DNA of 64,000 nucleotides, taken from a virus (lineage: Duplodnaviria; Caudoviricetes). The DNA lies in IMG/VR virus record IMGVR_UViG_3300037067_004891, positions 320,001 through 384,000 of that record; one strand, given 5' to 3'. Numbering within the stretch: position 1 is the first letter of the stretch; each line of letters starts with the position of its first letter. Below, one piece after another: positions 44,022-63,497 of this stretch. The position numbers were made by a program, and so were the translations under genes. Under the pieces are notes generated by a model, which was given only the letters and a program-made list of their open reading frames with translations, ran no database searches and was not told the origin of the DNA.

Positions 44022-45653
44022 ATGGAATCAAAATTAAATATTGGAATAACAATTTTTTTACATGAAGAAAATCAAAGTGTATGGACTAATGGTATATTAC
44101 AAAATGCGATTTTTTTGACAAAAACATTTCAAAATTCAATTCAAAATTATAACGTATATCTTGTCAATATGAGTAATATTAATATTACAAATAAATTAGG
44201 TTGGAATATAGAAAAATATAAAACGGTTCAATTTGATGAAATAAAAGATAAATTAGATATTATTTTTCCACTTGGTGGGTCTATTGATAAACCAACTACT
44301 GAATATTTGAGGAATAGAGGATGTAAAGTTGTACCATATAAATGTGGTAATGAATATATTATTAGTATGGAAAATATAATTTTTAACAGACAAGATATAG
44401 TTAAAGATTATCCAGAAGTTGATCAAGTTTGGAATATTCCACAAATGGAAAATACTAATCACCATTATTGGAGAATTTTACACAATGCCGAAACTATTAC
44501 TATACCATTCGTCTGGAATTCTATGTTTTTAGACCAACATATCGATGAATTAAAAAGACAAGGAAAAAATCCTTATTATACACCAAGTAAACTAAGTAAA
44601 AAAATTTCGATTTTCGAACCTAATATAAATGTTTATAAATTTTTAATGTATCCAATGTTAATTATAGAAGATGCATATAGAGAATATCCCGAACTGTTTC
44701 ATAGTGTGAAAGTTACAAACACACAGAAAGTTAGATTAACTAAAGAACTTAGTTCTATCATGAATCATTTAAGCATAGTTAAAGATAAAAAAACAACATT
44801 TGAGAATCGATTTCCGATTACTTGGTTTTTAACTGAACATACGGATGTTGTGGTTTCTCATCAATGGGAAAACGCTTTAAATTATGCATATCTGGATGCC
44901 ATATATTTAGGTTACCCGTTGGTTCATAATGCACATCTTTGTAAAGAATGCGGGTATTATTATGAAGGTTTTGATGTAAATGAAGGAAAAGATAAACTTA
45001 TTTATGCTTTAACTGAACATGATAATAATTTGGAAGAATATGCTGAAAAAAATAAAAAAATTTTAGAAAAATATTCATCTGATAATATTGAGAATGTTAA
45101 AAAATATGATGAATTGATTAATAATATAATGGGTTCTAAATCTCTTGCCGAAAAATTTGTACCTACCAGTTATGGTGCGTTTAAATCGGAAATAAAAGAT
45201 TATGTTTTAGATAAATATGATAAAGAGGCTAAGATATTAGATGTTGGTGCTGGATGTGGTACATATGCTAATATTTTAAAAGAATATAAAAATATTGATG
45301 CTATTGAAATTTATAAACCATATATTAAAAAATATGATTTAAAAAAGAAATATAAAAATATATTTAACTTAAATATTATTGATTTTGAATTTAATTTTTA
45401 TGATATAATTATATTAGGTGATGTTTTAGAACACTTAGAAATAGAAGATGCCCAAAAATTAATAAATAAATTATATAATAAATGTGAAGATTTAATAATA
45501 AGTGTTCCATATCTTATGATACAACATGGTCTTGAAAATAAACATGAAGATCACATTCAAGATGATTTAACAGAAGAAATAATGGAAACAAGATATCCTA
45601 ATTTAAAGAAAATGTGGAGCAATAATACAATTGCTATTTATTTTAAAAAATAA
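44022..45653 (+). CDS. DUF2827-like putative glycosyltransferase fused to a class I SAM methyltransferase
   Basis: WTNGILQN, VWNIPQ, FEPNI, SHQWENALNY, YPLVHN, GYYY..FD; C-terminal ILDVGAGCG, GDVLEH. Confidence 0.7.
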   Translation: MESKLNIGITIFLHEENQSVWTNGILQNAIFLTKTFQNSIQNYNVYLVNMSNINITNKLGWNIEKYKTVQFDEIKDKLDIIFPLGGSIDKPTTEYLRNRGCKVVPYKCGNEYIISMENIIFNRQDIVKDYPEVDQVWNIPQMENTNHHYWRILHNAETITIPFVWNSMFLDQHIDELKRQGKNPYYTPSKLSKKISIFEPNINVYKFLMYPMLIIEDAYREYPELFHSVKVTNTQKVRLTKELSSIMNHLSIVKDKKTTFENRFPITWFLTEHTDVVVSHQWENALNYAYLDAIYLGYPLVHNAHLCKECGYYYEGFDVNEGKDKLIYALTEHDNNLEEYAEKNKKILEKYSSDNIENVKKYDELINNIMGSKSLAEKFVPTSYGAFKSEIKDYVLDKYDKEAKILDVGAGCGTYANILKEYKNIDAIEIYKPYIKKYDLKKKYKNIFNLNIIDFEFNFYDIIILGDVLEHLEIEDAQKLINKLYNKCEDLIISVPYLMIQHGLENKHEDHIQDDLTEEIMETRYPNLKKMWSNNTIAIYFKK

Positions 45654-45662
45654 AATATTAGA

Positions 45663-46772
45663 ATGACAAATATCGCTATTACAATAGGTGTCAAAGAAGA
45701 TAATGAGAATTTATGGATTAATGGTATAAAATTAAATGCTCTATACTTAGCCAAATTACTTAAAAATATTGGAAAATATAATGTGTTCTTCGCTAATACA
45801 ACAAGTAAAGATATAACAAAATATGATTTTGATACAAAAGAATTTCCAGTATACCATATATCTGAGGTAAAAAACGATATCGATATATTAATATCCCTTG
45901 GTGGTCAGATAGATCATGATATGACCATGTTTTTGAAAAATAAAAAAACAAAAATTGTATCTTATAAGTGTGGTGATGAATATGTAATTCGAATGGAAAA
46001 TGTTTTGTTTAATCAAGATGTCGGTAACATAAAGATATGGTGTAACCCCGATTATGATGAAATATGGACAGTTCCACAGATATATGAACATAATTATTAT
46101 TATTTTAAACGGTTTCATAAAAACAAAAATTTAAAAACTGTTCCATTTATATGGAATTCGTTTATAATTGATGATCTGGTTCAGAAAATGGATAATAAAC
46201 CTATTTATAAACCATCAGACAAACCAAAATCATTGGCTATTTTAGAACCAAACCAAAATGTTTTAAAATATGCTATGTATCCAATTTTGATTGCTGATGA
46301 AGCATATGAAAAAAACCCCGAATTAATTGAAAAATTATATGTAACAAATACATCCAAAATAAGAACAAATAAAGTTTTTATTGAATATATGAATCATCTG
46401 AAAATTGTTCAAGATAAAAAAGCTACTTTTGAAGATAGATTTTCTACCGTTGATTTCTTAGCTAATTATGCTGATATTGTAATAAGTCATCAGTGGGATA
46501 ATGTTTTAAATTATTTTTATTTGGATGTTGCATATCTTGGACATGCTATATTACACAATGCACCAATGTGTAAAAATATTGGTTATTATTACAATAGGTT
46601 CGATGGTGATAACGCAGCTAAAAAATTATCATGGATTCTTAAAAATCATGATAAAAATTTGGATAATTATAATGAAGTAAATAAAAAAATATTATTCTCA
46701 TATGATGCTGATAATGAAATCAATATCAACACTTATGATAATTTATTAAAAACGCTCATTAAAAAATATTAA
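45663..46772 (+). CDS. DUF2827-like putative glycosyltransferase
   Basis: WINGIKLN, IWTVPQ, LEPN, SHQWDNVLNY, GYYY..FD; paralog of the preceding gene. Confidence 0.7.
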   Translation: MTNIAITIGVKEDNENLWINGIKLNALYLAKLLKNIGKYNVFFANTTSKDITKYDFDTKEFPVYHISEVKNDIDILISLGGQIDHDMTMFLKNKKTKIVSYKCGDEYVIRMENVLFNQDVGNIKIWCNPDYDEIWTVPQIYEHNYYYFKRFHKNKNLKTVPFIWNSFIIDDLVQKMDNKPIYKPSDKPKSLAILEPNQNVLKYAMYPILIADEAYEKNPELIEKLYVTNTSKIRTNKVFIEYMNHLKIVQDKKATFEDRFSTVDFLANYADIVISHQWDNVLNYFYLDVAYLGHAILHNAPMCKNIGYYYNRFDGDNAAKKLSWILKNHDKNLDNYNEVNKKILFSYDADNEININTYDNLLKTLIKKY

Positions 46773-46778
46773 ACTTAA

Positions 46779-47585
46779 ATGAAAGATGGTATATCAATTG
46801 TGATGGCTTATCATAATAGGAGAGAACAATTAATTAGAACTTTAAATTCTATTAATGAAACTAAATATGATAAATCGAAATTAGAAATTATTATCATTAA
46901 CGATAATAGTTTAGAACAACATTCGATAGATGATTTACTATCTTTATTTAATAGTTTGAAAATTCGGATTTTCAATATTAAGAAAGAACAGAAGAAATGG
47001 ACATGTTCATGTGTGCCATATAATATAGGATTTAATAACGTTCAATATAATAAAATACTTTTTCAAAACCCTGAGTGTTATCATATAGGAGATATCTTAT
47101 CGGACATTAATTTAAATTTATCCAATAATAATTATATACCATATGCGTGTTATTCCATAGGTGAAAAGGAATATATAGATAATGATTATAATAATTTAGT
47201 TTATGAACACGTTCAACCAACTCATGCATGTTCCAACGGGTGGTATAATCATTCTAAAATAAATTCAAAATGTTATCATTTCGCTTCTGCAATAACTACT
47301 GATAATTTATACAAAATAGGTGGGTTCGATGAAGATTATAAAGATGGTATTGCTTTCGATGATAATGAGATATTAAGAAGAATTAGGTTGTTGGGTCTAA
47401 ATATAAATATTATAGATTATCCATATGTTATCCATCAGTGGCACGATAGTGTTTATCATTTCAATGCATTGACATCTGAAGATGAAAAAAAGAAAATTAT
47501 GGAATTATTTTATAAAAATCAGAATTTATATGATAATGGTGTTTTAACATATAAAGCAAAAAACAATTTTTATTTTAATCCGTGA
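46779..47585 (+). CDS. Glycosyltransferase family 2
   Basis: ISIVMAYHNR, IIINDNS, IGGFDEDY...DDNE, HQWH. Confidence 0.85.
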   Translation: MKDGISIVMAYHNRREQLIRTLNSINETKYDKSKLEIIIINDNSLEQHSIDDLLSLFNSLKIRIFNIKKEQKKWTCSCVPYNIGFNNVQYNKILFQNPECYHIGDILSDINLNLSNNNYIPYACYSIGEKEYIDNDYNNLVYEHVQPTHACSNGWYNHSKINSKCYHFASAITTDNLYKIGGFDEDYKDGIAFDDNEILRRIRLLGLNINIIDYPYVIHQWHDSVYHFNALTSEDEKKKIMELFYKNQNLYDNGVLTYKAKNNFYFNP

Positions 47586-48265
47586 ATAATCAAAAAATAA
47601 AATATATTCAACTATATGCTGAACGACACACTGGTTCAAAATGGTTTGAAGATTGTATTAAACAATATTTGGTTATTCATAGTTATTTATTTCATTTAGG
47701 TTGGAAACATTTCTTTCCAGATATTTATACTATTGATAAAACATATTTAGATGAATATCTTTTCATAGTATTGAGTCGAAACCCATATGATTGGACAAAA
47801 TCTATGAATGAAAACCCATATCATGCACATATTTCTCTTAGAAATAAACCGTTAAATGATTTTATTAAAATGCCTTGGATTAGTGTACATGAAAAGAAGT
47901 TGAATAAAGAAAATGATTTATATCAGGAAAAAGAAATGTATTTTGAGAGAAATCCTCAAACATTATTACCATTTACAAATATAATAGAAATGAGGAATAT
48001 GAAAAATCAATATTTTATAAATTTAAAAAATATAGTTTCAAATATCAAAATTATTAGATATGAAGACATATGCACTGATATTGTAAAGATAATGAGTGAT
48101 ATATCTGATGAATTTAAAATATATAAAACAAATCGAAGAACAACTTATAATTCAATACCAAAAATGAGAAAAGAAATTGATGAGGATTCTTTAGATTTTA
48201 TAAATAAAAATATTAACTGGGAAGTTGAAAAATTTTTAGGATATGAAAAAAGAATTATTAATTAA
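47582..48265 (+). CDS. Putative sulfotransferase
   Basis: ERHTGS (5'-PSB-like), RNPYDWTKS (3'-PB-like), IRYED. Confidence 0.6.
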   Translation: MNNQKIKYIQLYAERHTGSKWFEDCIKQYLVIHSYLFHLGWKHFFPDIYTIDKTYLDEYLFIVLSRNPYDWTKSMNENPYHAHISLRNKPLNDFIKMPWISVHEKKLNKENDLYQEKEMYFERNPQTLLPFTNIIEMRNMKNQYFINLKNIVSNIKIIRYEDICTDIVKIMSDISDEFKIYKTNRRTTYNSIPKMRKEIDEDSLDFINKNINWEVEKFLGYEKRIIN

Positions 48266-48738
48266 TGTTTGAAGCAGAAAAAAGGGCAGGTGATATAGCA
48301 GAAGAAAATTTTCGTAATTTATTTGAAAGTAAAGGGTATACTGTTAATAAAACAAATTTTCAAGATGATGTGTATAATCATTTTGATTTTATAGTAGAAA
48401 AGGATGGAGTTGTTAAGAAATTTGAAGTAAAAGCAGCTAAAAAAGATGATAGAAATGATAATAAAGCATCATTTGAAATGACTTGGATAGAACTAAAAGG
48501 AATTAAAGGTTATTCAGGGTGGGTATATGGTCAGGCTGATTATTTTGCTTTTGAACAAAAAGAAGGTTTTATTATATCAAAACGAAAAGATATAGTCGAT
48601 TTAATTCTTCAAAAATTAGTCGATAATAATTTTGAAAGGGGAAAAGGAATGTATCAAATATATGGTAGAGAAGGTAGGGAAGATATTATAGTTAAAATTC
48701 TTTTCAAAGATTTAGAAAACAAACGTATTGTGAAATGA
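48265..48738 (+). CDS. PD-(D/E)xK nuclease-like protein
   Basis: AEE.F...HFDF...FEVK...WIELK...GWVYG.ADY. Confidence 0.6.
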   Translation: MFEAEKRAGDIAEENFRNLFESKGYTVNKTNFQDDVYNHFDFIVEKDGVVKKFEVKAAKKDDRNDNKASFEMTWIELKGIKGYSGWVYGQADYFAFEQKEGFIISKRKDIVDLILQKLVDNNFERGKGMYQIYGREGREDIIVKILFKDLENKRIVK

Positions 48739-49538
48739 AAATATCAATAGTAACAGCATATTATAATCGAAAAAATCTATTTTATAATACATTGAGATCA
48801 ATTGAAAGCTTAGTATCAAAAGATAGTGTTGAAATAATAGTTGTTGATGATGCTTCTCGTGAAGAAGAACGAATCGAAAGTTTTGTTGATAAATTTGATT
48901 TAGATTTAAAAATCATAAGAATAGAACAAAAAGATAAGTGGTGGACAAATCCATGTATACCTTTTAACATTGGTTTTAAGAATGCTACTGGGGATGTTAT
49001 AATTATTCAAAACCCAGAATGCATACATATGGGAAATATTATAAAATTTGTTGAAGAAAATATTCAAGATAATGTTTATTTGAATTTCGGATGCTATTCT
49101 ATTGATGAAAAGTTGACAAGAAAAATAACAAATTCTATTCAACCAGATTTTAATAAAGTTAAAGTAAATAATTTGATTTATCCAACCAACAATTGTAGTA
49201 TTGTTGCAGATGGTGAAACAGCTTGGTATAATCACTCGAAATATAGACCACATCAATTACATTTTTGTTCAGCTATAACTAAAAATAATTTAGTAGAATT
49301 GGGCGGGTTTGATGAAAGGTACGCCGATGGTATTGGTTTTGATGATAATGAATTTCTTTTAAGAATAAAAAGAAAGAATATGTTGATTAAAATGATTGAT
49401 AACCCATTTGTTCTACATCAATATCATTATTCGGGTACACCAATGAGTCAACAGAACCGTTTGTTATTTGGTAAGAATGGGAAATTATATTATAATATAT
49501 CACAAAATGAAAAAAATATAAAAATACAAGATTTATAA
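48735..49538 (+). CDS. Glycosyltransferase family 2 (paralog of 46779)
   Basis: ISIVTAYYNR, VVDDAS, QNPEC, GGFDERY. Confidence 0.85.
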   Translation: MKISIVTAYYNRKNLFYNTLRSIESLVSKDSVEIIVVDDASREEERIESFVDKFDLDLKIIRIEQKDKWWTNPCIPFNIGFKNATGDVIIIQNPECIHMGNIIKFVEENIQDNVYLNFGCYSIDEKLTRKITNSIQPDFNKVKVNNLIYPTNNCSIVADGETAWYNHSKYRPHQLHFCSAITKNNLVELGGFDERYADGIGFDDNEFLLRIKRKNMLIKMIDNPFVLHQYHYSGTPMSQQNRLLFGKNGKLYYNISQNEKNIKIQDL

Positions 49539-50389
49539 TGATACCAAAACGTATATTTTTTTATTGGTCAGGTAGTAATCTATCGTGGATGCGTTATATG
49601 ACACTATTTTCATTTAGAAAATATAATCCAACTTGGGAAATGATTCTTTATATCTCAGATAATGATAATGAGAAAAATTGGAAAGGTATTGAAGAACAAG
49701 ATTTTTCTAATTATAAAGGTATTGATTATTTTGAAAAAGTGAAAGAATTAAATATTGAAGTCAAAAAAATAAAATTACCAGATGAAATACAAAATAAGAT
49801 TAAAAAATTATCACCAGTACATGAAAGTGATATATTCAGATATTATGAACTATACACTAATGGTGGAATATATTCCGATATGGACGTTTTATACTTTAGG
49901 TCAATTGATGACTTATATAATTCATTAGAAGAAAAAAATATTGACACATTAATACATCAAGACACTGGTTATATTACAATTGGATTTCTTGGTTCGGGTG
50001 TTGAAAATAAATTATTCAGTGATATTTTTAATAAAGCTATAAATCTTATTTCATATAATAATTATCAATCATTTGGTGTTGATTTGATATATAGTATGTT
50101 TGGTGGGAATCGTCAAAATCCATTAATTATTGACAAAATTAAAAAAATTTATCAATATTTGAATATTTTTAATTTGAAAAATCAAACTGTTTACCAATTT
50201 GATTGGACAATGATAAATTATAATTTCAATAATGCCGTTGGTATCAATAGTTTTTCAAAAGATTCAATCGGATATCACTGGTTTGGCGGTAGTCCTATTT
50301 CTCAAAAATTTAATAATTTATTGAACGGAAGTAACTATCAAAATTATAAAATAACGTTTAGTGAAATTTGCAAAGAAATTTTAAAATAA
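49538..50389 (+). CDS. DxD glycosyltransferase (GT32-like)
   Basis: MIPKRIFFYW, SDIFRY, GGIYSDMD. Confidence 0.8.
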   Translation: MIPKRIFFYWSGSNLSWMRYMTLFSFRKYNPTWEMILYISDNDNEKNWKGIEEQDFSNYKGIDYFEKVKELNIEVKKIKLPDEIQNKIKKLSPVHESDIFRYYELYTNGGIYSDMDVLYFRSIDDLYNSLEEKNIDTLIHQDTGYITIGFLGSGVENKLFSDIFNKAINLISYNNYQSFGVDLIYSMFGGNRQNPLIIDKIKKIYQYLNIFNLKNQTVYQFDWTMINYNFNNAVGINSFSKDSIGYHWFGGSPISQKFNNLLNGSNYQNYKITFSEICKEILK

Positions 50390-50404: not shown

Positions 50405-51142
50405 ATGGATAACAAATTTATTATAATTATACCTGTATATAATGCTGAGATATATATTGAGAAATGTATGTTATCTATTTTAAACCAAAATTATGATAAT
50501 TTTGAAATCGGTGTGGTTGATGGTGGTTCAACGGACAACACATTTGAAATATTAAAAAAATTGAAAGAAAACTATCAATTTGAACTTATTCAAAATGATG
50601 TGAATATTAGCTCACCATTATCCAATTATCTTTTGGGAGTAGATACATTTTCCAAGGATAAAGAAGATATATTGGTAACCGTAGATGGTGATGATTTTTT
50701 GGCACATAATGGCGTGTTATCACTTTTAAATGATGTCTATCAAGATGAAAATATATGGTTAACTTATGGTCAATATGAACCTTTGAGTAGAACATATTTT
50801 AATTATTGCAGACCTATACCAGACACTCGAATTTATAGACGAAGTGGACAATGGTATGCTTCTCATCTTAGGACTGTTAAGAAAAAACTATTAGATAAGG
50901 TAAAGAGAGAAGATATGATAAATGAAAATGGTATATATTATCGGTATGCATGTGACGCTGCTTATATGTTTCCTATTATAGAAATGTCTGGACAAAAACA
51001 CATGAAATTCATAAAAGAAGTTTTGTATTATTACAATGATGTTACCCCGAACAATGCTATGAAAACTGATACTATGATTTTATTAAAAACTGATAAAATC
51101 ATTAGAGACAAACCAATTTACAATGAATTAACTGAATTATGA
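50405..51142 (+). CDS. Glycosyltransferase family 2
   Basis: IIPVYNAE, VDGGSTD, VDGDD. Confidence 0.85.
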   Translation: MDNKFIIIIPVYNAEIYIEKCMLSILNQNYDNFEIGVVDGGSTDNTFEILKKLKENYQFELIQNDVNISSPLSNYLLGVDTFSKDKEDILVTVDGDDFLAHNGVLSLLNDVYQDENIWLTYGQYEPLSRTYFNYCRPIPDTRIYRRSGQWYASHLRTVKKKLLDKVKREDMINENGIYYRYACDAAYMFPIIEMSGQKHMKFIKEVLYYYNDVTPNNAMKTDTMILLKTDKIIRDKPIYNELTEL

Positions 51143-51927
51143 ATATTGTAGTTTTCAGTAAAGATAGGGCAATGCAATTAGAGTTGTTTATTAGAAGTTT
51201 TAATAAATACGTTAAGAATTCTTCTGAATATTTAATAAAAATATTATATACATGTTCGAACAATGAATTCAAAAATGGTTATGAGAAATTAATAGCGGAG
51301 TCTGAAGAAAATGTGTTATGGAAGAAAGAAGAAAATTTCAAAGTAGACCTAATAAATTTAATGAATAAATATGATGCATACACAGTGTTTTTTGTTGATG
51401 ATATAGTATTTAAAAATCCAATAGATTTTAATGACAATCAACAAAAAGTATTCGAACATGATACTGACATATTGTGTAGAAGTTTGAGATTACAACCAAA
51501 TTTTAAATATTCTTATGCATCAAAAGATGCCATGACTAACCCAGATTATTTAGAACATAATGTTTATTTCTGGAAAGGTAAAAGTGGTGATTATGGTTAT
51601 CCAATGTCTGTTGATGGTCATATTTATAGAACAAATCAAATATATCCATATGTGTTAAATTTACCTTATACAAATCCTAATTCATTCGAAGGGAATATGG
51701 CAATAAGACCTCTTAATTTACCTAAAATGGTTTGTTATGATAAATCTATAATTGTAAATAATCCATGTAATAAAGTTCAAACAAATAATCCTAATTTTCA
51801 TGGTAAAATTGATGCCAAATTTCTTAATAATAAATATTTGGATGGATATATAATTAGTTTAGAAAATTTTGACGGCATTGAAAATTCAGCATGTCATCAA
51901 GAGATTGATTTAATTTTTAAAAAATAA
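51139..51927 (+). CDS. Putative GT-A glycosyltransferase
   Basis: IVVFSKDRAMQL, FFVDD; genomic context. Confidence 0.55.
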   Translation: MNIVVFSKDRAMQLELFIRSFNKYVKNSSEYLIKILYTCSNNEFKNGYEKLIAESEENVLWKKEENFKVDLINLMNKYDAYTVFFVDDIVFKNPIDFNDNQQKVFEHDTDILCRSLRLQPNFKYSYASKDAMTNPDYLEHNVYFWKGKSGDYGYPMSVDGHIYRTNQIYPYVLNLPYTNPNSFEGNMAIRPLNLPKMVCYDKSIIVNNPCNKVQTNNPNFHGKIDAKFLNNKYLDGYIISLENFDGIENSACHQEIDLIFKK

Positions 51928-53285: not shown

Positions 53286-53294
53286 TAATGTAAT

Positions 53295-54970: not shown

Positions 54971-55009
54971 TAAAATGATTAAACCCAATTTTTGTTTATA
55001 TATAAATAT

Positions 55010-55744
55010 ATGAATGATATAATTAAAAAAATAATTACAACTTCTTATTTATGTAAAGAAGGACACATTGCAAGTTCACTCTCTGTATTAGATATACTTT
55101 TTGTTCTTTATAAAGATATTTTAAAATTGGAATCTGAAGATAGAGATAGACTTATTTTAAGTAAAGGACACGCATCACTTGGATTATATGCCGTACTTGA
55201 TCATTTTAATTTACTTGAAGAAAACTTATCTAATTTTGGTAAATTTAATTCTAAATTGGGTGGACATCCATCTGATAAAACAAAATTTGTTGAAGCTTCG
55301 ACAGGTTCTTTAGGTCATGGGTTGGCAATTGGTGTTGGATTGGCGATGGGATACAAAATTTTAAATTATATAAATAATATTTATGTAATCATAGGTGATG
55401 GTGAATCTAATGAAGGAACTATTTGGGAATCTGCACTTTTAGCATCGCATCATAAATTGAACAATTTATATTGTATTATGGATTTTAATAGATCAAATGA
55501 TAGAGCTATTAAAATAGATAATGTAATGAGAAAATTCGATTCATTCAATTGGGATTGTATTGAGATAAATGGACATAATTATGATGAGATAAAAATGTCT
55601 TTACAATCGATTTCACAAAAACCCACGTTTATTTTAGCAAATACTATAAAAGGAAAAGGAGTTAAAATGATGGAAAATAACCCAGAATGGCATCACAGAT
55701 TTCCAAATGAAGATGAATATAATAACATATTGTTTGATTTATGA
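55010..55744 (+). CDS. Transketolase N-terminal (TPP-binding) subunit
   Basis: GHIASSLS, LSKGH, STGSLGHG, GDGESNEG, KGKG, WHH. Confidence 0.9.
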   Translation: MNDIIKKIITTSYLCKEGHIASSLSVLDILFVLYKDILKLESEDRDRLILSKGHASLGLYAVLDHFNLLEENLSNFGKFNSKLGGHPSDKTKFVEASTGSLGHGLAIGVGLAMGYKILNYINNIYVIIGDGESNEGTIWESALLASHHKLNNLYCIMDFNRSNDRAIKIDNVMRKFDSFNWDCIEINGHNYDEIKMSLQSISQKPTFILANTIKGKGVKMMENNPEWHHRFPNEDEYNNILFDL

Positions 55745-56619
55745 GAAAGCAATTAATAAAATCTGTTGAAAATTTATTAGATATTAATCCAAAAACGGTT
55801 CTTCTACTTGGTGATATAGGTGTTTTTGGATTTAGAAATTCTTTCAAAAAATATCCAAATAGAGTGTATAATATTGGAATTTTGGAACAATCTACAATTG
55901 GATTAGCAGCAGGTTTATCTAAAATTGGATTAATACCTTTTGTTCATACGATTTCGCCATTTATTGTTGAACGTGCATTAGAACAACTTAAAATAGATTT
56001 TGGTTATCAAAATCTAAATGGCAATTTTTTGGGAATAGGGGCTTCTTATGATTATTCAGCGTTGGGGGCAACACATCATTGTCCAAGTGATATTTCTATA
56101 TTACAGAACATACCAAATATGCAAATTATAATACCTGGTAGTTCATCAGAACTTGATTATCTTTTAAATTCTAATTATAATAATGGACAACCTACTTATT
56201 ATAAATTAGCAGAATACGAAAATATTAATCAGGTGAATGTAATGGTAGATAAAGCTTCAATAATTAAAACTGGAAAGTTGGCTACTGTTATTTGTTTCGG
56301 TAATATGTTGGATTCGGTATTAGAGTCAACTAAAGATTTAGATGTAACAGTTTTATATTATACTACAATAAAACCATTCGATAATAAAATTTTATATGAT
56401 AATTTTAATGAAAAAATAATTTTAATTGAACAATTTTATGAGGGTAGTATGAATTATCAAATTAATAAATCATTGATTGATAAAAAATATTCTATATATA
56501 ATATTGGAATTCGTCATGAATTTTTAGATAAAAATGGTTCTAAACAAGATATAGATAATTATTTAGGAATGGATACACAATCCATAAAAGAAAAAATACA
56601 TCAAATATGTATAAAATAA
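55741..56619 (+). CDS. Transketolase C-terminal subunit
   Basis: NIGILEQ, RALEQLK, GATHH. Confidence 0.9.
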   Translation: MRKQLIKSVENLLDINPKTVLLLGDIGVFGFRNSFKKYPNRVYNIGILEQSTIGLAAGLSKIGLIPFVHTISPFIVERALEQLKIDFGYQNLNGNFLGIGASYDYSALGATHHCPSDISILQNIPNMQIIIPGSSSELDYLLNSNYNNGQPTYYKLAEYENINQVNVMVDKASIIKTGKLATVICFGNMLDSVLESTKDLDVTVLYYTTIKPFDNKILYDNFNEKIILIEQFYEGSMNYQINKSLIDKKYSIYNIGIRHEFLDKNGSKQDIDNYLGMDTQSIKEKIHQICIK

Positions 56620-57629
56620 TAGAACAAGACGTAGAGGACATCATTAATAAAATTAATTTTACTCAATTAGAAAATAAATCGATATTAATAACTGGAGCAT
56701 CTGGTATAATAGGAGTTTATTTGATGTCTTGTTTGAAAAGACTTTATAAAAATTTAAATATTAAAGTATATGCTTGGACTAAATCAGAAATAGATGAAAA
56801 CCTTTCTTCCCTTTTTGATTTTGATCTTACTATAATTAATGAAGATATAACTGATATAATAAATTATAAGGAAACATTACCATTATTTGATTTTATAATT
56901 CATGCAGCAGGTTATGGACAACCTGGTAAGTTTCTTGAAAATAAAATAAAAACAATTGAAATTAACACTTCTGTAACCATTGAACTTATAAAATTGTTAA
57001 AACCTGACGGGAAATTTTTATTTATAAGTACGAGTGAATTATATAGTGGGTTAGACAGTGATTTTATTAAAGAAGAAGAAATTGGTAACACTAAAACTAA
57101 CCATCCTCGTGCTTCTTATATAGAAGGAAAAAGATGTGGAGAAGCTATATGTCATTCTTTTATATCTGAAGGAAAAAATATAAAAATAGCTCGTCTATGT
57201 CTGGCTTACGGTGCTGGGACAAAGAAGAATGATAATAGAGTACTGAATTCTTTAATACAAAAAGCAATTCAAAATGATAAAATCCAACTAATGGATTCTG
57301 GGAATGCAATACGAACATATTGTTATATCGCTGATGTGATTGAAATGTTTTGGAATATTTTATTTTTTGGAAAACACACTACTTATAATGTTGGGGGTGT
57401 ATCAAAAATTTCTATTTTAGAAATGGCTGAAATGATAGGTAGAATTTTTGATAAAGATGTTGTTATTCCACTAAATGATAATAATGAATTAGAAGGTAGT
57501 CCAAAAATAGTTAATATTAGTATTCAAAAATATCTGGACGAATTTAAAAAAAATGTTTCCGATTTCATACCATTTAGTTTAGGTTTACAGAGGACGATTC
57601 AGTGGCAAAAATTTATTTATAAAAAATGA
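56607..57629 (+). CDS. NAD-dependent nucleotide-sugar epimerase/dehydratase/decarboxylase
   Basis: ITGASGIIG, HAAG, STSELY, YIEGK. Confidence 0.85.
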   Translation: MYKIIEQDVEDIINKINFTQLENKSILITGASGIIGVYLMSCLKRLYKNLNIKVYAWTKSEIDENLSSLFDFDLTIINEDITDIINYKETLPLFDFIIHAAGYGQPGKFLENKIKTIEINTSVTIELIKLLKPDGKFLFISTSELYSGLDSDFIKEEEIGNTKTNHPRASYIEGKRCGEAICHSFISEGKNIKIARLCLAYGAGTKKNDNRVLNSLIQKAIQNDKIQLMDSGNAIRTYCYIADVIEMFWNILFFGKHTTYNVGGVSKISILEMAEMIGRIFDKDVVIPLNDNNELEGSPKIVNISIQKYLDEFKKNVSDFIPFSLGLQRTIQWQKFIYKK

Positions 57630-58549
57630 ACAAAATAGAACCATTTCATATCGAAAATATTTTAGGATTTAAATTGAATCCAAGCCACAATCAACAAATT
57701 ATAGATTTAAATTTAGTATATGATGAAATGTCTAAATTTGAAAGAGATGAATATTTATTATCAGTTATTGATGTACTCAATAAGGATATTACTTGTAGTG
57801 GTGAACACAGAATTAATGAATGGGAAAACGGATGGAGTGAAAATCTTCAAAATTTTAAAAAATTAAAAGATATTAAATATTTAATACCAAAATATCATGG
57901 TAAATATAATATTGCACGATGGATGGGGGATGTTGTTACATCAGAAATATCAGATTTTGATTATAAAATCCATATTTGTATGGTTGATGCAATCCTACAA
58001 CATTACTTAAAAGATTGTAAGAATATATATGAATTCGGATGTGGGTCAGCTTATCATTTAATTAGGTTAAATAATTTTAATAGTGATTTTATATTACACG
58101 GTTCAGATTGGGCGCACACATCCCAAAAAATTATTAAAGAAATAAATGATATATTGGACATTAATATTAATATGTTCAATTTTAATTTTTTTAATCCCGA
58201 TTTTAATATAAATTTAGGAGAAAATAGTGGCATTTATACTATCGCAGCATTAGAACAAGTTGGCGAAAATTTCAAAGCTTTCGTTGATTATTTATTGAAT
58301 AAAAAACCAAGTATATGTATTCATCTTGAACCTATTGATGAATTATTAGACGAAAATAAATTAATTGATAAATTATCAATTATGTATTTTAGAAAACGGA
58401 ATTATTTGAAAGGTTTCTTGCCTTATTTAGAAGAATTAGAAAGAGAAGATAAGATAGAAATAATTAAAAAACAAAGAATATTTACTGGAAGTTATTTTAT
58501 TGAAGGACATTCTTTGATAGTTTGGAGAATTAAAAATGAAAACACTTAG
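57626..58549 (+). CDS. Class I SAM-dependent methyltransferase
   Basis: IYEFGCGS, GSDW, ALEQ. Confidence 0.65.
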   Translation: MNKIEPFHIENILGFKLNPSHNQQIIDLNLVYDEMSKFERDEYLLSVIDVLNKDITCSGEHRINEWENGWSENLQNFKKLKDIKYLIPKYHGKYNIARWMGDVVTSEISDFDYKIHICMVDAILQHYLKDCKNIYEFGCGSAYHLIRLNNFNSDFILHGSDWAHTSQKIIKEINDILDININMFNFNFFNPDFNINLGENSGIYTIAALEQVGENFKAFVDYLLNKKPSICIHLEPIDELLDENKLIDKLSIMYFRKRNYLKGFLPYLEELEREDKIEIIKKQRIFTGSYFIEGHSLIVWRIKNENT

Positions 58550-59465
58550 AGTATTTGTTACAGATTGGTATTTAATGGACATGCCATATTCAGATATAGA
58601 TAATATATTTTTATGGATTCTAAAGAAAAAATTTAATGTTATAATAGATAGTGAGAACCCAGATGTATTATTTTATTCTAAGTCTGATATTGACAATTAT
58701 TTAAATTATAAAAATTGTTTAAAAATATATGTTAATAGTGAACCTGGTTATTATAATGATATTTCAAAATATGATATAAATCATATGGCATATAAAGCAA
58801 TTAAAAATTGTGATTATATGATATCATCTTATAAATCTAATATGGAAAATAATTATTACTTACCAGTGTTTATGTTATGGTTATATCATCATATATATGT
58901 AACAAAAATAATAGAATCATTTGAATCTTTAACTAAAAGTAGAAATCCTGTTGATAAAAAATATTTTTGCATTTTTTTACATAGAAATACTGTTCCTTAT
59001 AAACGAAAAGAAATTTTTAATAAATTATGTTTATATAAAAAGATTCATACTAAACACGATTTAAATGTTCCAGATAGTTCATTGAATAAGATAAATATCA
59101 TTAAAGATTTTAAATTTTCATTTGCTATGCAAAATCATTTTTATAAAGAGAACCATTATGCTAAAAATGATAATTATATAGAGTATGATATACCTGGACT
59201 TATAGATGAAAAAATATTAGAATCCTTAATATCTAATACTATTCCAATATATTACGGAAATGAAGAAATTACTAAATATTTTAATAAAAATAGTTTTTTA
59301 AATTATCATGATTTTAATGATGATGACCGATTTATTCAAGAAATTATAAATATAGATAAAAATGATAGTTTATCTAAAGAAATTTTATCACAACCAGTTT
59401 TTAATAATTTAAACGATTTGAAAATTAATGAATTAGAAAACTTTTTATTTAAAATAATAGATTAA
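58536..59465 (+). CDS. GT10 alpha-1,3-fucosyltransferase-like protein
   Basis: NPDVLF, FKFSFAM.N...EKI......IPIYYG...FN..SFLN. Confidence 0.7.
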   Translation: MKTLRVFVTDWYLMDMPYSDIDNIFLWILKKKFNVIIDSENPDVLFYSKSDIDNYLNYKNCLKIYVNSEPGYYNDISKYDINHMAYKAIKNCDYMISSYKSNMENNYYLPVFMLWLYHHIYVTKIIESFESLTKSRNPVDKKYFCIFLHRNTVPYKRKEIFNKLCLYKKIHTKHDLNVPDSSLNKINIIKDFKFSFAMQNHFYKENHYAKNDNYIEYDIPGLIDEKILESLISNTIPIYYGNEEITKYFNKNSFLNYHDFNDDDRFIQEIINIDKNDSLSKEILSQPVFNNLNDLKINELENFLFKIID

Positions 59466-59489
59466 AAACTAAAAAATAAATATTTATAT

Positions 59490-60407
59490 ATGAAGATTTT
59501 AATTACAGGTGGAGCTGGTTATAAAGGCTCTATTTTAGCTAAAGAACTTTTAGATAGAAATCATCAAGTTACAATACTTGATAATTTTATGTATGGTTAT
59601 GATAGTATATTACATATTATTAATAATTCGAATCTTAAAATTAAAAAAATTGATATTAGAAATGTTAAAGAAACCGATTTAAAAGAATATGATGTTATAT
59701 ATCATTTAGCTGGTATTAGTGGTATGCCAGCATGTGCAGCTAACCCACATTCCGCAGAAGCTATTAATGTCGAATCGGTTGATAAGATGATTAAGATATT
59801 ATCAAAAGACCAAATATTAATTAATGCTTCAACCACATCTATGTATGGATATAGTGAAATTATTTGTGATGAAAAATCTCAAATTAACCCAGTAAGTATT
59901 TATGGTAAAACTAAATATGAAGCTGAAAAAATAATTCAAAATAGAGAAAATAGTATTTCATTAAGGTTTGCTACTGTTTTTGGGGTATCGACTAAAATGA
60001 GAAATGATTTAATGGTTAATGATTTTGTTTACCGTTCAATTCATGAAAGAAATATTATTCTGTTTGCTGCTCACACCAAAAGAACATTTATTCATATAAA
60101 TGATGCAATAAATGCATATATATTCACTTTAGATAATTTTGAAGCGATGAAGGATGATGTATATAATGTTGGAGATGAAAAAATGAATCTATCCAAATTA
60201 GATATATGTGAAAATATAAAAGATTTTGTAAAATTTGAAACTATTAATTCAACTTTACCAGACTTAGATAATAGAAATTTTGAAATTTCATTTCAGAAAA
60301 TAAAAAAACTTGGATACAATGTTAACTATTCTCTGAGAGATGGTGTTGAAGATTTAGTTAAGTTGTATACAGTTTATGTTTATAATTTACCATATAATAT
60401 AATTTAA
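59490..60407 (+). CDS. NAD-dependent epimerase/dehydratase
   Basis: ITGGAGY.G, HLAG, YGKTK, LRFATVFG. Confidence 0.88.
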   Translation: MKILITGGAGYKGSILAKELLDRNHQVTILDNFMYGYDSILHIINNSNLKIKKIDIRNVKETDLKEYDVIYHLAGISGMPACAANPHSAEAINVESVDKMIKILSKDQILINASTTSMYGYSEIICDEKSQINPVSIYGKTKYEAEKIIQNRENSISLRFATVFGVSTKMRNDLMVNDFVYRSIHERNIILFAAHTKRTFIHINDAINAYIFTLDNFEAMKDDVYNVGDEKMNLSKLDICENIKDFVKFETINSTLPDLDNRNFEISFQKIKKLGYNVNYSLRDGVEDLVKLYTVYVYNLPYNII

Positions 60408-60418
60408 AAAATAAGAAA

Positions 60419-61057
60419 ATGAATTTAAAAGACAATAAAGTTTTTGTACAGATTGGGACAAATAATGGCGATGATGATTTTAATAAATTGGTGAAATTAC
60501 ATAGTCCGAGTAAAATTATATTAGTTGAACCCAATATTAGTTTAAATGAAAAAATACACAATTCATATGAAAATGTTGAAAATGTTTTTTTAGAAAACGT
60601 TATAATTTCTAATTATAAAGATGAAAAAATCAAATTAGTAAAACCTAAAAATAATATAAATGGTAAATCCATCAATGGTATAAAATATGATGATGGTCAT
60701 TATAGTTTATTACCATTAAACGATTGGGGAAATGTTTTTGATTATATTGAAACTGATACATTATCATTTATGTCTTTATGTGAAAAATACAATTTAACAG
60801 ACATACATTTTTTACAAATTGACACTGAAGGATATGACTCTGAAATAATATTGTCCATTAATTTTAATAAAGTGAATATTGATATTATAAAATATGAAAA
60901 ATGGTATTTTGATGAATCTTTTTATGAAAAGTATGGTGCGTTGTCAAAAAAGTATGGTGCTAATGGAATGAATGAAGCAAAAAAATATTTAATTTCAAAT
61001 GATTATACTTTTATAGATAATGAAAAAGATTTAGATCATGTTGTTATTAAAAAATAA
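60419..61057 (+). CDS. FkbM-family methyltransferase
   Basis: VQIGTNNG, VEP, LQIDTEGYD. Confidence 0.8.
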   Translation: MNLKDNKVFVQIGTNNGDDDFNKLVKLHSPSKIILVEPNISLNEKIHNSYENVENVFLENVIISNYKDEKIKLVKPKNNINGKSINGIKYDDGHYSLLPLNDWGNVFDYIETDTLSFMSLCEKYNLTDIHFLQIDTEGYDSEIILSINFNKVNIDIIKYEKWYFDESFYEKYGALSKKYGANGMNEAKKYLISNDYTFIDNEKDLDHVVIKK

Positions 61058-61100
61058 AAACTTTTTATCTGAAATTATCTACATATTAAAAAAGCTCCGA

Positions 61101-63497
61101 ATGAAAATTTTAACTCTGTTAGGAACACGACCTGAAATTATAAGGCTTTCTGTTATTATTAAAAAACTAAATAACATTCTTGGAAAAAATCATGTGGTAG
61201 TTTATTCAAACCAAAACTTTGATTATAAATTAAGTAAAGTTTTTTTTGGAGAACTTGGTTTACTTACTCCAAGTTATTATTTCGGTGATTTAGAAGCCAA
61301 ATCAGTTGGTGAGTTCTTATCTAAAGGTATTGAAAAATTTGAAAATGTTTTAAATCAAGAAAAACCTGATAAGATATTAATTCTCGGTGATACTAACACG
61401 GGTCTACTTGCAATGTTAGCTTCTAAACGTGGGATACCAGTGTATCATATGGAAGCAGGTAATCGTTCTTTTGATAATAGAGTGCCAGAAGAAACAAACC
61501 GAAAAATAATAGATTCTTTCTCCAAAGTAAATTTACCATATACAGAAAATAGTAAACAAAATCTTTTAGCTGAAGGATATCACAAAAATTTTGTGTTTAA
61601 AATTGGTAATCCAATTTATGAAGTATTAAATGAATACGAAGAAGGAATACGAAATAGTATGGTCATTGAAAAATTAAAATTAAAATATTATGAATATGTT
61701 CTTGTAACTGCCCACAGAAGTGAAAACGTAGATGATGATGGTAACCTCATTGAACTATATAACTTTTTAAATGAAATAGCTAAGGATAGAAAGGTTGTGT
61801 TTTCTGTTCATCCAAGAACTAAATCTAAATTGGATAAATTGAATTTAGAATTTAATGATAATATAATATTGTCAGAACCATTTGGATTTTTTGATTTTGT
61901 TAAATTAGAAAAAAATTGTCATGTAGGGATTACTGATTGTTTAAGACCAGATACATTAACTGTATTAGAAAATGGATTAATTAAATCATTTAATGAATTA
62001 AAGACTAATGATTCAATAATAAGTTTGAACAATTGTAACGATATTAAAATAATTGCTACAAAAAATGTCAATAAAAAATATAAAATTACCACTAAATATA
62101 ATGAAATATATTGCAGCGAAAATCATAAATTATTTATACAAAATGGTGATGATATTAAAGAAATAAAAATAAAAAATTTGAAAAAATCGGATAGGTTAGT
62201 ATCATTTTGTAAAATAAACATTAATAATAAAAATAATATTACTTTAAAAGAAATAGAACAACCAGATTACGTTAAAATAACAGATGAAGGAATTTCTTTT
62301 TTAAAAATATATTCAGATGGTAATCCATTAAAAGAGTTTGGTAGATTTAAAACAAATACAATTAGATTAAAGAAGGGGGTTGATTTTAAAAAATTAAAAG
62401 AAGTTTTAGATTATTTAAGTATTGAAATAGATGCTTTTAAAAAATTTATTTACAAAAGTAATCCATCACATAAAAGACAACACAATATAATTCAATCTAA
62501 AATATTAACTAATGAATTAGCAACCATATGTGGGTTTTTATGTGGTGACGGATTAAATAGGAAAAATAAAAACATTTCATTTTTCGATGAAAATGAAGAA
62601 AATCTAATTTTAATCAATGATATAATTAAAAAATTGTTTGGTTTAAGTAGTGAAATAAAATGTGATAAAAGAAGTGTATCTGGAAAATATATAAGATATA
62701 GTTCAAAATCTTTATCTAATTATTTTTCTTTAAATTTTCCAGCAGAATCTGAAAATACTACAACTAATAAAAAAGACATATCAGACATAATATTAATGTC
62801 ATCTAATGAAATAGTGAAACATTATATTAGGGGTTTATTTGAAGCCGAGGGTTTCGTGGGAGACCACCATATTGCTATAACAATGTCTGATAAACCAGTT
62901 ATATATAAGTTAAAATATCTATTATTACGATTTGGTATAATATCTAATATATATGAGTTTGAACCAAGGAGAGATAGGGATAAATCTATTATGTATCAGT
63001 TAGCTATTTATGAAAATGAAAGTAGAAAAATATTTAGAGATGAAATAGGTTTTATATCTTCCTATAAAACCAATAATTTGAATAATTTATTTGAAAAAAT
63101 AGATAGACAAAGTAGACAAAAACCAGTTATAAGATATGATAATATATTTTTTGACTTGATTAGAAATATAGAAATTATAGAAGATGAATATGAATATATT
63201 GACATAAATGTTGAACCAAATAATATTTTTTTAGCAAATGGTCTATTATCCCATAATTCGGGTACTGTACAAGAGGAATTACAAATATTTAAAGTACCAT
63301 CTATCACCATAAGAAACACCACCGAGAGACAAGAAACTATTGAAAATGGTTCTACTATACTAACTGGTATGAATTATAAAAAAATGATAGATGCTTTCAA
63401 TACGATTAAATACATGACTAATAACTGGGATGATATTTCAGATTATACAGTAGAAAATGTGTCTGATAGGGTAATAAAAATATTACTTAGTAGATAA
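61101..63497 (+). CDS. wecB: UDP-N-acetylhexosamine 2-epimerase (WecB/FnlC-like) containing a LAGLIDADG intein
   Basis: GTRPE, LGDTN, HMEAGNRS..PEE.NR, HPRT, TD|SGTVQEE, TERQE; likely start ATG 61101. Confidence 0.9.
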   Translation: MKILTLLGTRPEIIRLSVIIKKLNNILGKNHVVVYSNQNFDYKLSKVFFGELGLLTPSYYFGDLEAKSVGEFLSKGIEKFENVLNQEKPDKILILGDTNTGLLAMLASKRGIPVYHMEAGNRSFDNRVPEETNRKIIDSFSKVNLPYTENSKQNLLAEGYHKNFVFKIGNPIYEVLNEYEEGIRNSMVIEKLKLKYYEYVLVTAHRSENVDDDGNLIELYNFLNEIAKDRKVVFSVHPRTKSKLDKLNLEFNDNIILSEPFGFFDFVKLEKNCHVGITDCLRPDTLTVLENGLIKSFNELKTNDSIISLNNCNDIKIIATKNVNKKYKITTKYNEIYCSENHKLFIQNGDDIKEIKIKNLKKSDRLVSFCKININNKNNITLKEIEQPDYVKITDEGISFLKIYSDGNPLKEFGRFKTNTIRLKKGVDFKKLKEVLDYLSIEIDAFKKFIYKSNPSHKRQHNIIQSKILTNELATICGFLCGDGLNRKNKNISFFDENEENLILINDIIKKLFGLSSEIKCDKRSVSGKYIRYSSKSLSNYFSLNFPAESENTTTNKKDISDIILMSSNEIVKHYIRGLFEAEGFVGDHHIAITMSDKPVIYKLKYLLLRFGIISNIYEFEPRRDRDKSIMYQLAIYENESRKIFRDEIGFISSYKTNNLNNLFEKIDRQSRQKPVIRYDNIFFDLIRNIEIIEDEYEYIDINVEPNNIFLANGLLSHNSGTVQEELQIFKVPSITIRNTTERQETIENGSTILTGMNYKKMIDAFNTIKYMTNNWDDISDYTVENVSDRVIKILLSR
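61938..63257 (+). mobile_element. 440-aa intein with a LAGLIDADG homing endonuclease
   Basis: C1 CLRPDT, block B CSENH, ICGFLCGDG and IRGLFEAEG motifs, terminal LSHN followed by Ser+1. Confidence 0.9.

Follow-up and report, generated by a model that had tools for sequence, protein, structure and literature searches.

A glycan synthesis island embedded in a fiber gene module was investigated in a 64,000-nt stretch of tailed-phage DNA (the window), which corresponds to bases 320001 to 384000 of the linear, 421,673-bp IMG/VR record IMGVR_UViG_3300037067_004891 (genome G000). The island, which begins at window position 44022, is proposed to encode a lipid-carrier-independent pathway that O-glycosylates fibrous proteins of the phage's own virion, in the cytoplasm of the host and prior to assembly, a reading to which we assign a probability of approximately 0.6. 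We infer the acceptor, the order of the steps and the identity of the sugars from observed gene content, product solubility, synteny and genomic context. A first-pass annotation, made by a model from the sequence alone, had described positions 44022 to 63497 as a cytoplasmic pathway building a glycan on virion proteins. The cytoplasmic part of that description is borne out by the solubility of the encoded products, while the virion-protein target gains support from context, because genes of the family DUF2827 are linked to fiber genes in phages and to adhesin genes in bacteria; attachment as such is proposed.

The 44022-to-63497 interval contains 21 open reading frames (ORFs; g1 to g21), all on the plus strand and with intergenic gaps of -28 to +24 nt, in agreement with the approximately 20 tightly coupled, co-oriented genes first described. 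Assignments were derived from Pfam, NCBIfam, the ESM Atlas and AlphaFold models searched with Foldseek, and account for nine glycosyltransferases (GTs), four methyltransferase domains (the C terminus of g1, g10, the fold of g17 and g20), two extended short-chain dehydrogenase/reductase (SDR) enzymes, a split transketolase and a WecB enzyme, in addition to the probable sulfotransferase g4. The repertoire listed by the first-pass annotation was largely reproduced, as its approximately nine GTs of several families were recovered (the GT47-like member below, and the GT10-like member just above, the respective cut-off). Among the phage-type passengers that it had named, the intein was confirmed as a LAGLIDADG element within WecB, whereas the nuclease, g5, is a possible passenger, weakly supported by its two sequence matches. 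The boundary at 63497 had to be revised: read on locus L005, with window numbering extrapolated beyond position 64,000, the glycan block continues for approximately 7 kb past the window to position ~70800, giving a true length of ~26.8 kb and at least 27 genes, of which the interval first described represents about three quarters.

The fiber module reported to adjoin the island does so, albeit on both sides rather than on one, such that fiber genes bracket the island. Upstream, the N-terminal domains of two fiber proteins are related to capsid-decoration, virion structural and tail-fiber proteins of cultured phages, and that of the 35282-to-37411 product matches the PHROG categories "virion structural protein" and "head decoration"; on the basis of these sequence matches, the upstream fibers may be capsid or tail fibers. 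Downstream of the last sugar gene, a reductase, there are three large fiber genes, the last of which encodes a Peptidase_S74 chaperone domain and has dozens of tail-fiber PHROG matches. Of the 517 ORFs of at least 100 amino acids (aa) in the 422-kb contig, only three contain the motif LS[TS]x[ILVM]S at least twice, namely the two fibers just 5' and the one just 3' of the island. Their repeat has the consensus SLSTAISTExSTRxSxD and a period of 18 residues, the 41924-to-43858 product containing eight such units of the form SLST(A/G)(I/L)S.

Two relatives, G001 (676 kb; 98% complete) and G002 (640 kb, with terminal repeats; 100% complete), share with G000 a common order of fibers, g1 to g10, WecB, a MazG-like gene, a dehydratase, a reductase and again fibers, at 50 to 87% protein identity. 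The center of the island, g11 to g20 (positions 52560 to 61057), is absent from both relatives. In its place, G001 harbors genes for a GT47-type GT, an S-adenosylmethionine (SAM) methyltransferase, a GT31-like GT, an FkbM methyltransferase and a TylC3-like sugar C-methyltransferase, the first two of which also open the center of G002 before the content differs; furthermore, the 5' blocks of both relatives hold extra GTs (a double GT2, a rhamnosyltransferase-like gene and a GT10-like gene). By analogy, conserved flanks with a swappable center represent the architecture of a serotype locus.

Chimerism with host DNA, set in advance by the first-pass annotation as a test of its reading, is excluded because this synteny recurs in both relatives. 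The notion that the island is host DNA misassembled onto the phage, or a recent host-derived passenger without a phage role, may appeal to its bacterial-looking gene repertoire and to the nature of the record, a linear metagenome assembly that is 59% complete, yet it is scarcely credible in view of several observations. The GC content of the island (24 to 26%) resembles that of the rest of the 422-kb contig (23 to 30%; 25% overall); the fiber-island-fiber order is retained both in the 676-kb genome and in the 640-kb genome with terminal repeats; exactly matching, overlapping contigs from an independent landfill metagenome of another study cover the fiber-to-island stretch; and the presence of inteins here and in neither relative fits phage population dynamics. 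When the island and fiber region were compared by megablast with 50,697 phage records, no match was obtained, and a tblastn search of the same records with g1 matched only its methyltransferase part, indicating that no DUF2827 domain is present in that collection.

DUF2827 (PF10933) is the family to which g1 and its paralog g2 belong. Both proteins span model positions 1 to 362 (the curated cut-off being 25 bits) and the invariant residues of the family are retained in both paralog types, while g1 is 80 to 83% identical to its counterparts in G001 and G002. The AlphaFold model of g2 (predicted local distance difference test [pLDDT] score of 93.7; predicted template modeling [pTM] score of 0.90) adopts a GT-B fold, and the PDB structures that it matches best are those of the GT4 enzymes BshA and MshA (Foldseek E value of ~1e-10; template modeling [TM] score of ~0.6). 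A six-frame search recovered two, three and two copies of the family in G000, G001 and G002, respectively, all of them in the island, with the third copy of G001 situated between two fiber genes. In total, DUF2827 adjoins fiber genes in six phage loci, i.e., those of G000, G001 and G002 together with L016, L017 and L118. On L016, a 28-kb viral contig, a DUF2827 pair is followed by a short fiber-like ORF with the same repeat; on L017, a DUF2827 fusion and one GT2 constitute the sole glycosylation genes and are sandwiched by fiber homologs; and on L118, a 233-kb viral contig, a lone DUF2827 gene directly follows a fiber pair. The first gene of the fiber module in the window (33571 to 35229) encodes a protein that is 40% identical to the L118 homolog whose next-but-one gene is this DUF2827. 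L017 (JBBAEW010000045.1; 17 kb; 24.7% GC) is filed as part of a Saccharofermentanales metagenome-assembled genome (MAG), but it is full of megaphage-fiber homologs and is probably a phage fragment that was mis-binned.

Bacterial members of the family were collected with a second alignment led by Burkholderia sequences, a phage-only alignment having reached a single bacterial locus. Among the 80 loci obtained, most of which belong to Burkholderia and Paraburkholderia, 67 carry three to four tandem DUF2827 copies, and 39 have within 8 kb an ORF with at least eight SLST-type motifs, many of these ORFs exceeding 1,200 aa with a Ser+Thr content of 38 to 51%. Five of the SLST-rich ORFs were inspected (29 to 51% Ser+Thr): each terminates in a YadA-type anchor, and SLSTGLST-type repeats at a spacing of 7, 11, 14 or 18 residues occur in four. 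A 2026 preprint (10.64898/2026.01.22.700529) describes DUF2827 proteins as cytoplasmic putative glycosyltransferases found constantly with trimeric autotransporter adhesins and claims a GT-B fold for them, while Burkholderia Ser-rich adhesins, which form separate clades, have been compared with glycosylated streptococcal adhesins (PMC3417366); our literature search found no link of DUF2827 to phages. Two unrelated kinds of trimeric fiber, one bacterial and one phage encoded, have in common a DUF2827 neighbor and a similar Ser/Thr-rich coiled-coil repeat. We put forward, as a tentative generalization with odds somewhat below even, that DUF2827 may represent a dedicated cytoplasmic O-glycosyltransferase family for trimeric coiled-coil fibers, common to bacterial autotransporter adhesins and megaphage fibers, and that megaphages may have built a hypervariable, serotype-like virion glycocalyx (conserved initiator block, swappable cassettes, methylation and sulfation) as the phage counterpart of giant-virus fibril glycans.

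The same linkage bears on the possibility that another cytoplasmic acceptor is used, be it a capsid, internal or injected phage protein, a host protein, a small molecule or a glycolipid, in which case proximity to fiber genes would reflect late-gene clustering. That DUF2827-fiber adjacency repeats across loci with little else in common, and that the bacterial adhesin linkage forms an independent line of evidence, makes such an acceptor decidedly unlikely in our estimation, even though the fiber acceptor is a proposed one and the cassette of transketolase, SDR, methyltransferase and second SDR genes in the island center is found in many unrelated viral contigs without DUF2827. The fiber N-terminal domains also match "head decoration" families, which allows for more than one location on the virion; a capsid-decoration fiber would, however, still be a virion protein and thus fall within the proposed fiber glycosylation.

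The pathway is soluble. No hydrophobic 19-residue segment above a Kyte-Doolittle value of 1.8 indicative of a membrane span was detected in any of the 21 ORFs, the sole peaks lying in Rossmann motifs, a result which upholds the earlier statement that no multi-pass membrane member is encoded. The reported absence of Wzx/Wzy exporters and of undecaprenyl priming could be extended to all three phage genomes: Bac_transf (PF02397) and Glycos_transf_4 (PF00953) are missing from G000, G001 and G002, with controls being positive in 9 and 12 of 14 genomes, respectively, as are Polysacc_synt (PF01943), Wzy_C (PF04932) and PMT_2 (PF13231), for which control genomes were positive, although ABC-2 transporter families were not searched. 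All but one of the GT2 domains in each genome lie inside the island. The lone GT2 genes (~220 to 237 aa), away from the fiber module, are located at G000:C1:253628-253987, G001:C1:417743-418093 and G002:C1:115304-115672. Some 170 kb upstream, G000:C1:149200-151662 (minus strand) encodes an 820-aa protein with approximately 15 hydrophobic spans and no Pfam match, the only ORF with at least five spans in the 422 kb.

Several points weigh against the glycosylation of virion fibers. No glycan has been directly observed on any protein, the target being deduced, and the CheckV completeness of the G000 contig is ~59%. A hairpin at 43900 to 43941, which was not called by a consensus terminator scan, separates the fiber gene at 41924 to 43858 from g1, and co-transcription may consequently fail. 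The SLST-type repeats may be no more than common coiled-coil sequence and not sites of glycosylation; the fiber repeats of L118 are of the type LSGWTG, not SLST, so that no single sequon is defined; and 41 of the 80 bacterial loci contain no Ser-rich ORF in the 8-kb flank. Finally, peripheral GTs of O-antigen and capsule pathways also normally lack membrane spans, and the phage could in principle feed the priming, flippase and polymerase functions of its host.

This last point underlies the main alternative, namely that the island remodels the host surface. Soluble GTs would act at the inner membrane face on host undecaprenyl-linked O-antigen, capsule or general O-glycosylation intermediates, which host enzymes would finish, thereby blocking superinfection during the long megaphage cycle. 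GT2, FkbM and FnlA/WecB-type routes are typical of O-antigen and capsule loci, the variable center with conserved flanks is reminiscent of serotype loci, and the GT-rich clusters of jumbo cyanophages, which vary among relatives, have been read in this manner (PMC7824862). Such remodeling would leave unexplained why DUF2827 is found in or beside fiber genes at six phage loci, some of them without other sugar genes, and why bacterial DUF2827 lies next to Ser-rich autotransporter adhesins and not in polysaccharide loci; moreover, neither of the two essentially complete relatives yielded a priming, flippase, polymerase/ligase or GT-C family. Known serotype-converting phages, for their part, employ one to three genes, including genes for membrane proteins. 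Host-surface remodeling is, for these reasons, considered unlikely, while being the competitor to be taken most seriously.

Hypermodification of phage DNA with glycans, as performed by T-even glucosyltransferases and newer virus-encoded DNA glycosyltransferases, was also considered. Diverse glycans on phage DNA have been documented (Pyle et al. 2024, as cited in PMC12619734), a MazG-like gene is present inside the island in all three phages, and T4 alpha-glucosyltransferase is among the matches of the DUF2827 model (TM score of ~0.6), at a level no better than that of dozens of GT-B enzymes. The sole ThyA-family gene of G001 and G002, situated more than 100 kb away, nonetheless encodes a canonical thymidylate synthase (273 bits versus a TIGR03284 cut-off of 108); a second ThyA-family gene that might specify a hydroxymethylase was not found in these two genomes, nor was any ThyA-family gene found in the incomplete G000. 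Nothing in the fiber and adhesin context points to DNA, and at least nine GTs combined with methyl- and sulfotransferases exceed any DNA glycan known to us. DNA as the acceptor is very improbable on this evidence.

According to the proposed fiber glycosylation pathway, two or three DUF2827 GT-B enzymes would add the first sugars to Ser/Thr residues on the exposed faces of the fiber coiled-coil repeats, and the soluble GT2, GT32-type, GT10-like and GT47-like enzymes would subsequently lengthen the chain sugar by sugar, with the methyltransferases and the sulfotransferase decorating it. The trio of WecB, PseB/FnlA-like and RmlD-like enzymes is predicted to produce donors from host UDP-N-acetylglucosamine (UDP-GlcNAc), in the form of N-acetylmannosamine (ManNAc) and/or 6-deoxy-hexosamines of the N-acetyl-L-rhamnosamine/N-acetyl-L-quinovosamine (L-RhaNAc/L-QuiNAc) type, to which the mobile transketolase-SDR-methyltransferase-SDR cassette would, in this strain, add an extra donor, probably a branched or higher-carbon methylated sugar. 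The conserved flanks and variable center would then yield a strain-specific, serotype-like glycan.

By analogy, the closest known systems are the Megavirinae fibril clusters with respect to function, the streptococcal serine-rich repeat protein (SRRP) loci with respect to logic and, as the only ones to share a protein family with the island, the bacterial DUF2827-adhesin arrays, whereas the family searches found none of the features taken to define lipid-carrier polysaccharide loci and T-even-type DNA glycosylation. The analogy to giant viruses drawn in the first-pass annotation is apt, as Megavirinae possess clade-specific glycosylation clusters of 6 to 33 genes, including an L-Rha2NAc/L-Qui2NAc route encoded by Mg534-536 (PMC10117803). 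In Mimivirus, Megavirus, Moumouvirus and Tupanvirus, as here, viral clusters comprise nucleotide-sugar pathways, several GTs, methyltransferases and sulfate-modifying enzymes; Mg534-536 parallels the PseB/FnlA-like, RmlD-like and WecB-like trio; content varies by clade in both; and bacterial-type glycans are placed on virion fibrils without host secretory machinery, as is likewise proposed here. However, the Megavirinae are eukaryote-infecting Nucleocytoviricota rather than tailed megaphages, their fibril proteins are GMC oxidoreductases rather than coiled-coil fibers, and DUF2827 has not been reported from them; furthermore, their glycans have been solved chemically, whereas that of the present island is predicted.

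The SRRP loci of Gram-positive bacteria resemble the island in logic only, in that the gene of a Ser-rich-repeat fibrous adhesin lies beside a set of soluble GTs, of which the pneumococcal locus encodes approximately ten, producing polymorphic glycans. The adhesin repeats there are SxSx dipeptide runs, as opposed to coiled-coil SLST 18-mers, and the island adds nucleotide-sugar synthesis, methylation and sulfation. The GtfA/GtfB family of the SRRP loci is separate from DUF2827, and neither it nor the SecA2/Y2 export families were found in Pfam/NCBIfam scans of the island genes; a SecA2/Y2 system is missing from the island because phage fibers assemble in the cytoplasm. In these loci (Fap1, GspB and PsrP), cytoplasmic O-glycosylation is started by a GT-B enzyme and extended stepwise by GT-A enzymes with no lipid carrier (PMC5207161).

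Bacterial DUF2827 arrays (Burkholderia, Veillonellales and Pasteurellales) belong to the same Pfam family, to which the island paralogs match at 343 to 392 bits, and likewise consist of tandem paralogs, cytoplasmic in location, beside a trimeric SLST-rich fiber. They differ in containing three to four copies with no other island genes nearby and in having as partner not a virion fiber but a secreted outer-membrane adhesin, the function being putative in both. The mycobacteriophages, which to our knowledge encode no sugar-nucleotide pathway, glycosylate the C termini of capsid and tail-tube subunits, as demonstrated by mass spectrometry, whereas the system described here is predicted and consists of at least 27 genes with a variable cassette in a fiber context. 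In those phages, virion structural proteins are modified by phage-encoded GTs (Freeman et al. 2023, PMC10527164, cited in PMC12619734), Maravista having about two such enzymes (PMC11256854). Jumbo cyanophage clusters contain paralogous GTs of several families, sugar-nucleotide enzymes and O-methyltransferases and are polymorphic (Iyer et al. 2021, PMC7824862), but they are interpreted as modifying the outer polysaccharide of the host for superinfection exclusion, and no link to fibers or DUF2827 is described in the passages of that paper that were consulted. A preprint on Lak phages refers to no more than a single glycosyltransferase, "implicated in lipopolysaccharide biosynthesis," and our literature search found no description of a fiber-embedded glycan island in megaphages.

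Phage virion glycosylation has so far been shown only in the form of small mycobacteriophage cassettes, and autonomous, cluster-encoded glycans are a hallmark of giant eukaryotic viruses. Were the proposed pathway correct, phages would have "glyco-serotypes," with possible effects on adsorption and host range, on resistance to proteases and immune defenses, and on the behavior of particles in mucus or sediment; a function open to testing would be assigned to the orphan family DUF2827, an adhesin neighbor in Burkholderia and other bacteria; and soluble, lipid-independent glycosylation enzymes with a compact acceptor repeat might be usable in glycoengineering. The mobile transketolase-SDR-methyltransferase-SDR cassette, in turn, suggests that a hitherto undescribed nucleotide-sugar pathway is widespread among phages.

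Table 1. Features of the fiber module and glycan island (window positions unless stated otherwise)
Feature	Position	Strand	Basis
Fiber-module gene, 552 aa, opening a block of five large structural ORFs	33571-35229	+	76-80% identical and syntenic in G001 and G002
Fiber/decoration protein, 709 aa	35282-37411	+	S+T 28%; 4 SLSTAISTE-type repeat motifs
Two large fiber-module ORFs, 644 and 618 aa	37599-41413	+	Distant homologs (31-35% identity) in downstream fiber blocks of G001 and G002
Fiber/decoration protein, 644 aa, directly 5' of island	41924-43858	+	PHROG "head decoration," E 2.9e-19
Hairpin plus T-run, terminator-like	~43900-43941	+	Read directly in intergenic sequence; loop too long for scanner
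g1, DUF2827 plus C-terminal SAM methyltransferase	44022-45653	+	PF10933 E 2e-117, 392 bits, residues 7-366; Methyltransf_23 residues 393-490
g2, DUF2827, paralog of g1	45663-46772	+	PF10933 E 2e-102, 343 bits
g3, GT2	46779-47585	+	PF00535 29.4 bits, above cut-off
g4, probable sulfotransferase	47582-48265	+	Family motifs; one PF00685 homolog; Atlas clusters; weak fold matches
g5, small PD-(D/E)xK-like protein	48265-48738	+	YraN NF009152 E 4.6e-5, below cut-off; PDDEXK_5 E 0.03
g6, GT2	48735-49538	+	PF00535 E 4.6e-12
g7, Gly_transf_sug, GT32-type, DXD motif	49538-50389	+	PF04488 E 1.5e-10
g8, GT2	50405-51142	+	PF00535 E 2e-19
g9, large uncharacterized family	51139-51927	+	474 homolog clusters
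g10, FkbM methyltransferase, last of conserved 5' block	51938-52555	+	PF05050 E 2.8e-16
Central cassette g11-g20, strain-specific	52560-61057	+	Pfam and NCBIfam matches
g11, Gly_transf_sug GT32-type, also TcdA/TcdB glycosyltransferase domain	52560-53285	+	
g12, GT47/RXYLT1-like	53295-54122	+	Weak Pfam match, below cut-off
g13	54095-54970	+	No Pfam match up to E 5
g14, transketolase N subunit	54992-55744	+	
g15, transketolase pyrimidine and C domains	55741-56619	+	
g16, extended SDR	56607-57629	+	
g17, class I methyltransferase fold	57626-58549	+	Atlas TM 0.71-0.79; matched clusters all Methyltransf_11/25
g18, GT10-like	58536-59465	+	Just above Pfam cut-off
g19, extended SDR	59490-60407	+	
g20, FkbM methyltransferase	60419-61057	+	
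g21, WecB-type UDP-GlcNAc 2-epimerase with intein	61101-63497	+	PF02350 E 1.4e-76; intein-free ortholog passes TIGR00236 cut-off
LAGLIDADG homing intein, 440 aa, in WecB ITD|SGT motif	61938-63257	+	Intein_splicing plus LAGLIDADG_3
RmlD-like reductase gene, split by a second LAGLIDADG intein	L005 5702-7807 (~68700-70800 in window numbering)		

Within the conserved 5' block, the assignment of g4 as a probable sulfotransferase is consistent with several lines of evidence. The ERxxG and RNPYDW motifs, which we take to be loops binding 3'-phosphoadenosine-5'-phosphosulfate (PAPS), are invariant across its small family; one homolog, 47% identical, carries PF00685; the ESM Atlas structure search points to sulfotransferase clusters; and the PDB matches listed by Foldseek for the AlphaFold model (pLDDT of 88.5) are all sulfotransferases or PAP(S)-binding relatives, albeit weak ones (E values of at least 5e-3; TM scores of 0.3 to 0.5). 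The g4 sequence itself had no Pfam or NCBIfam match, and PDB sequence searches (phmmer and profile) with it gave nothing useful. The neighboring g5 is present in G001 and absent from G002. The family of g9, collected at an E value of 1e-3 or lower, has members of ~262 aa, sometimes ~443 aa, with invariant FSKDR and FFxDD motifs; none of its 474 clusters carries a Pfam domain, phmmer and profile searches against PDB returned no useful match, and Pfam searches up to an E value of 5 gave nothing, such that the suggestion of a further GT-A-like enzyme, prompted by these sequence motifs, is speculative. The g10 product shares 52 to 84% identity with its counterparts in G001 and G002.

In the central cassette, g14 to g16, which encode the two transketolase subunits and the first SDR, are found as a unit in all 12 other viral contigs, whose GC content ranges from 25 to 45%, and many of these also encode a g17-type methyltransferase-fold protein and a second SDR. 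Judging from this sequence-level recurrence (loci L099 to L111 and L115), the module at 54992 to 60407 has the appearance of a mobile nucleotide-sugar pathway carried by phages and so far undescribed. Its product is probably a C-branched or chain-extended methylated sugar, an analogy modeled on thiamine pyrophosphate-dependent branching enzymes, for which we presume YerE and AviB1/B2 to be suitable precedents; a literature search returned nothing relevant on split transketolases in polysaccharide loci. The transketolase module is also found in a few MAG contigs, sometimes with a GT10-like gene alongside.

The g21 ORF was listed with a start at 61038, while alignment with orthologs places the conserved, and probably true, start at 61101. 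Its intein starts at C301 and ends at H739-N740, with S741 as the next residue, and qualifies as a homing intein; both relatives are intein-free at this gene as well as at the RmlD-like reductase gene, so that, in this strain only, inteins interrupt two members of the WecB, dehydratase and reductase trio. On L005, WecB is followed by two small ORFs (one of them MazG-like), a 233-aa gene, the dehydratase, a 246-aa gene and the RmlD-like reductase. WecB scores above its cut-off (244 bits), whereas the PseB/FnlA-like UDP-GlcNAc 4,6-dehydratase (337 and 245 bits) and the RmlD-like reductase (62 bits) score below theirs, those of the dehydratase being equivalog cut-offs. The MazG-like gene, a predicted dATP/dGTP pyrophosphohydrolase (L005 2088-2567; PF04447 E 2e-6), lies between WecB and the dehydratase and is kept in all three megaphages. 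The 233-aa and 246-aa genes flanking the dehydratase (L005 3209-3910 and 4956-5696) had no Pfam match up to an E value of 5, and each is tandemly duplicated in G002 (L010 6898-8305 and 9352-10846).

With regard to expression signals, a scan against shuffled sequence found no terminator-like site within the 21-ORF block (2.9 expected). Sigma-70 promoter-like sites occurred at chance level in a consensus scan (209 versus 193 +/- 17), a result that is uninformative. The upstream regions of the island genes are A/T-rich and contain no Shine-Dalgarno motif, which we take to fit a Bacteroidota-type host. An alternative genetic code was rejected, as ORFs gain little length when TAG or TGA is taken as a sense codon and table 11 already leaves all 21 genes open. 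An origin in a giant eukaryotic virus was similarly rejected on account of the overlapping, operon-like genes, the matches to tail-fiber and homing-endonuclease PHROGs and the existence of relatives with terminal repeats.

Upstream genes match phage helicase, homing endonuclease and transposase families. Just 5' of the fiber module, and on the opposite (minus) strand, lie two large paralogous DUF7487 ORFs (28801 to 30393 and 31723 to 33447), the first of which also matches homing-endonuclease and HNH PHROGs. Neither the 552-aa product of the first fiber-module gene nor the 644- and 618-aa ORFs of 37599 to 41413 had a Pfam or PHROG match. Between two of the fiber genes, positions 41414 to 41923 form a 510-nt stretch with several inverted repeats and no ORF of at least 100 aa. 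Landfill and groundwater samples (runs X1 to X4) contain this uncultured phage. At positions 43484 to 43810, contigs of two other runs (X3 and X4) bear a variant fiber C terminus with dense substitutions, at a depth higher than that of the rest, and co-occurring strains may consequently differ in their fiber tip.

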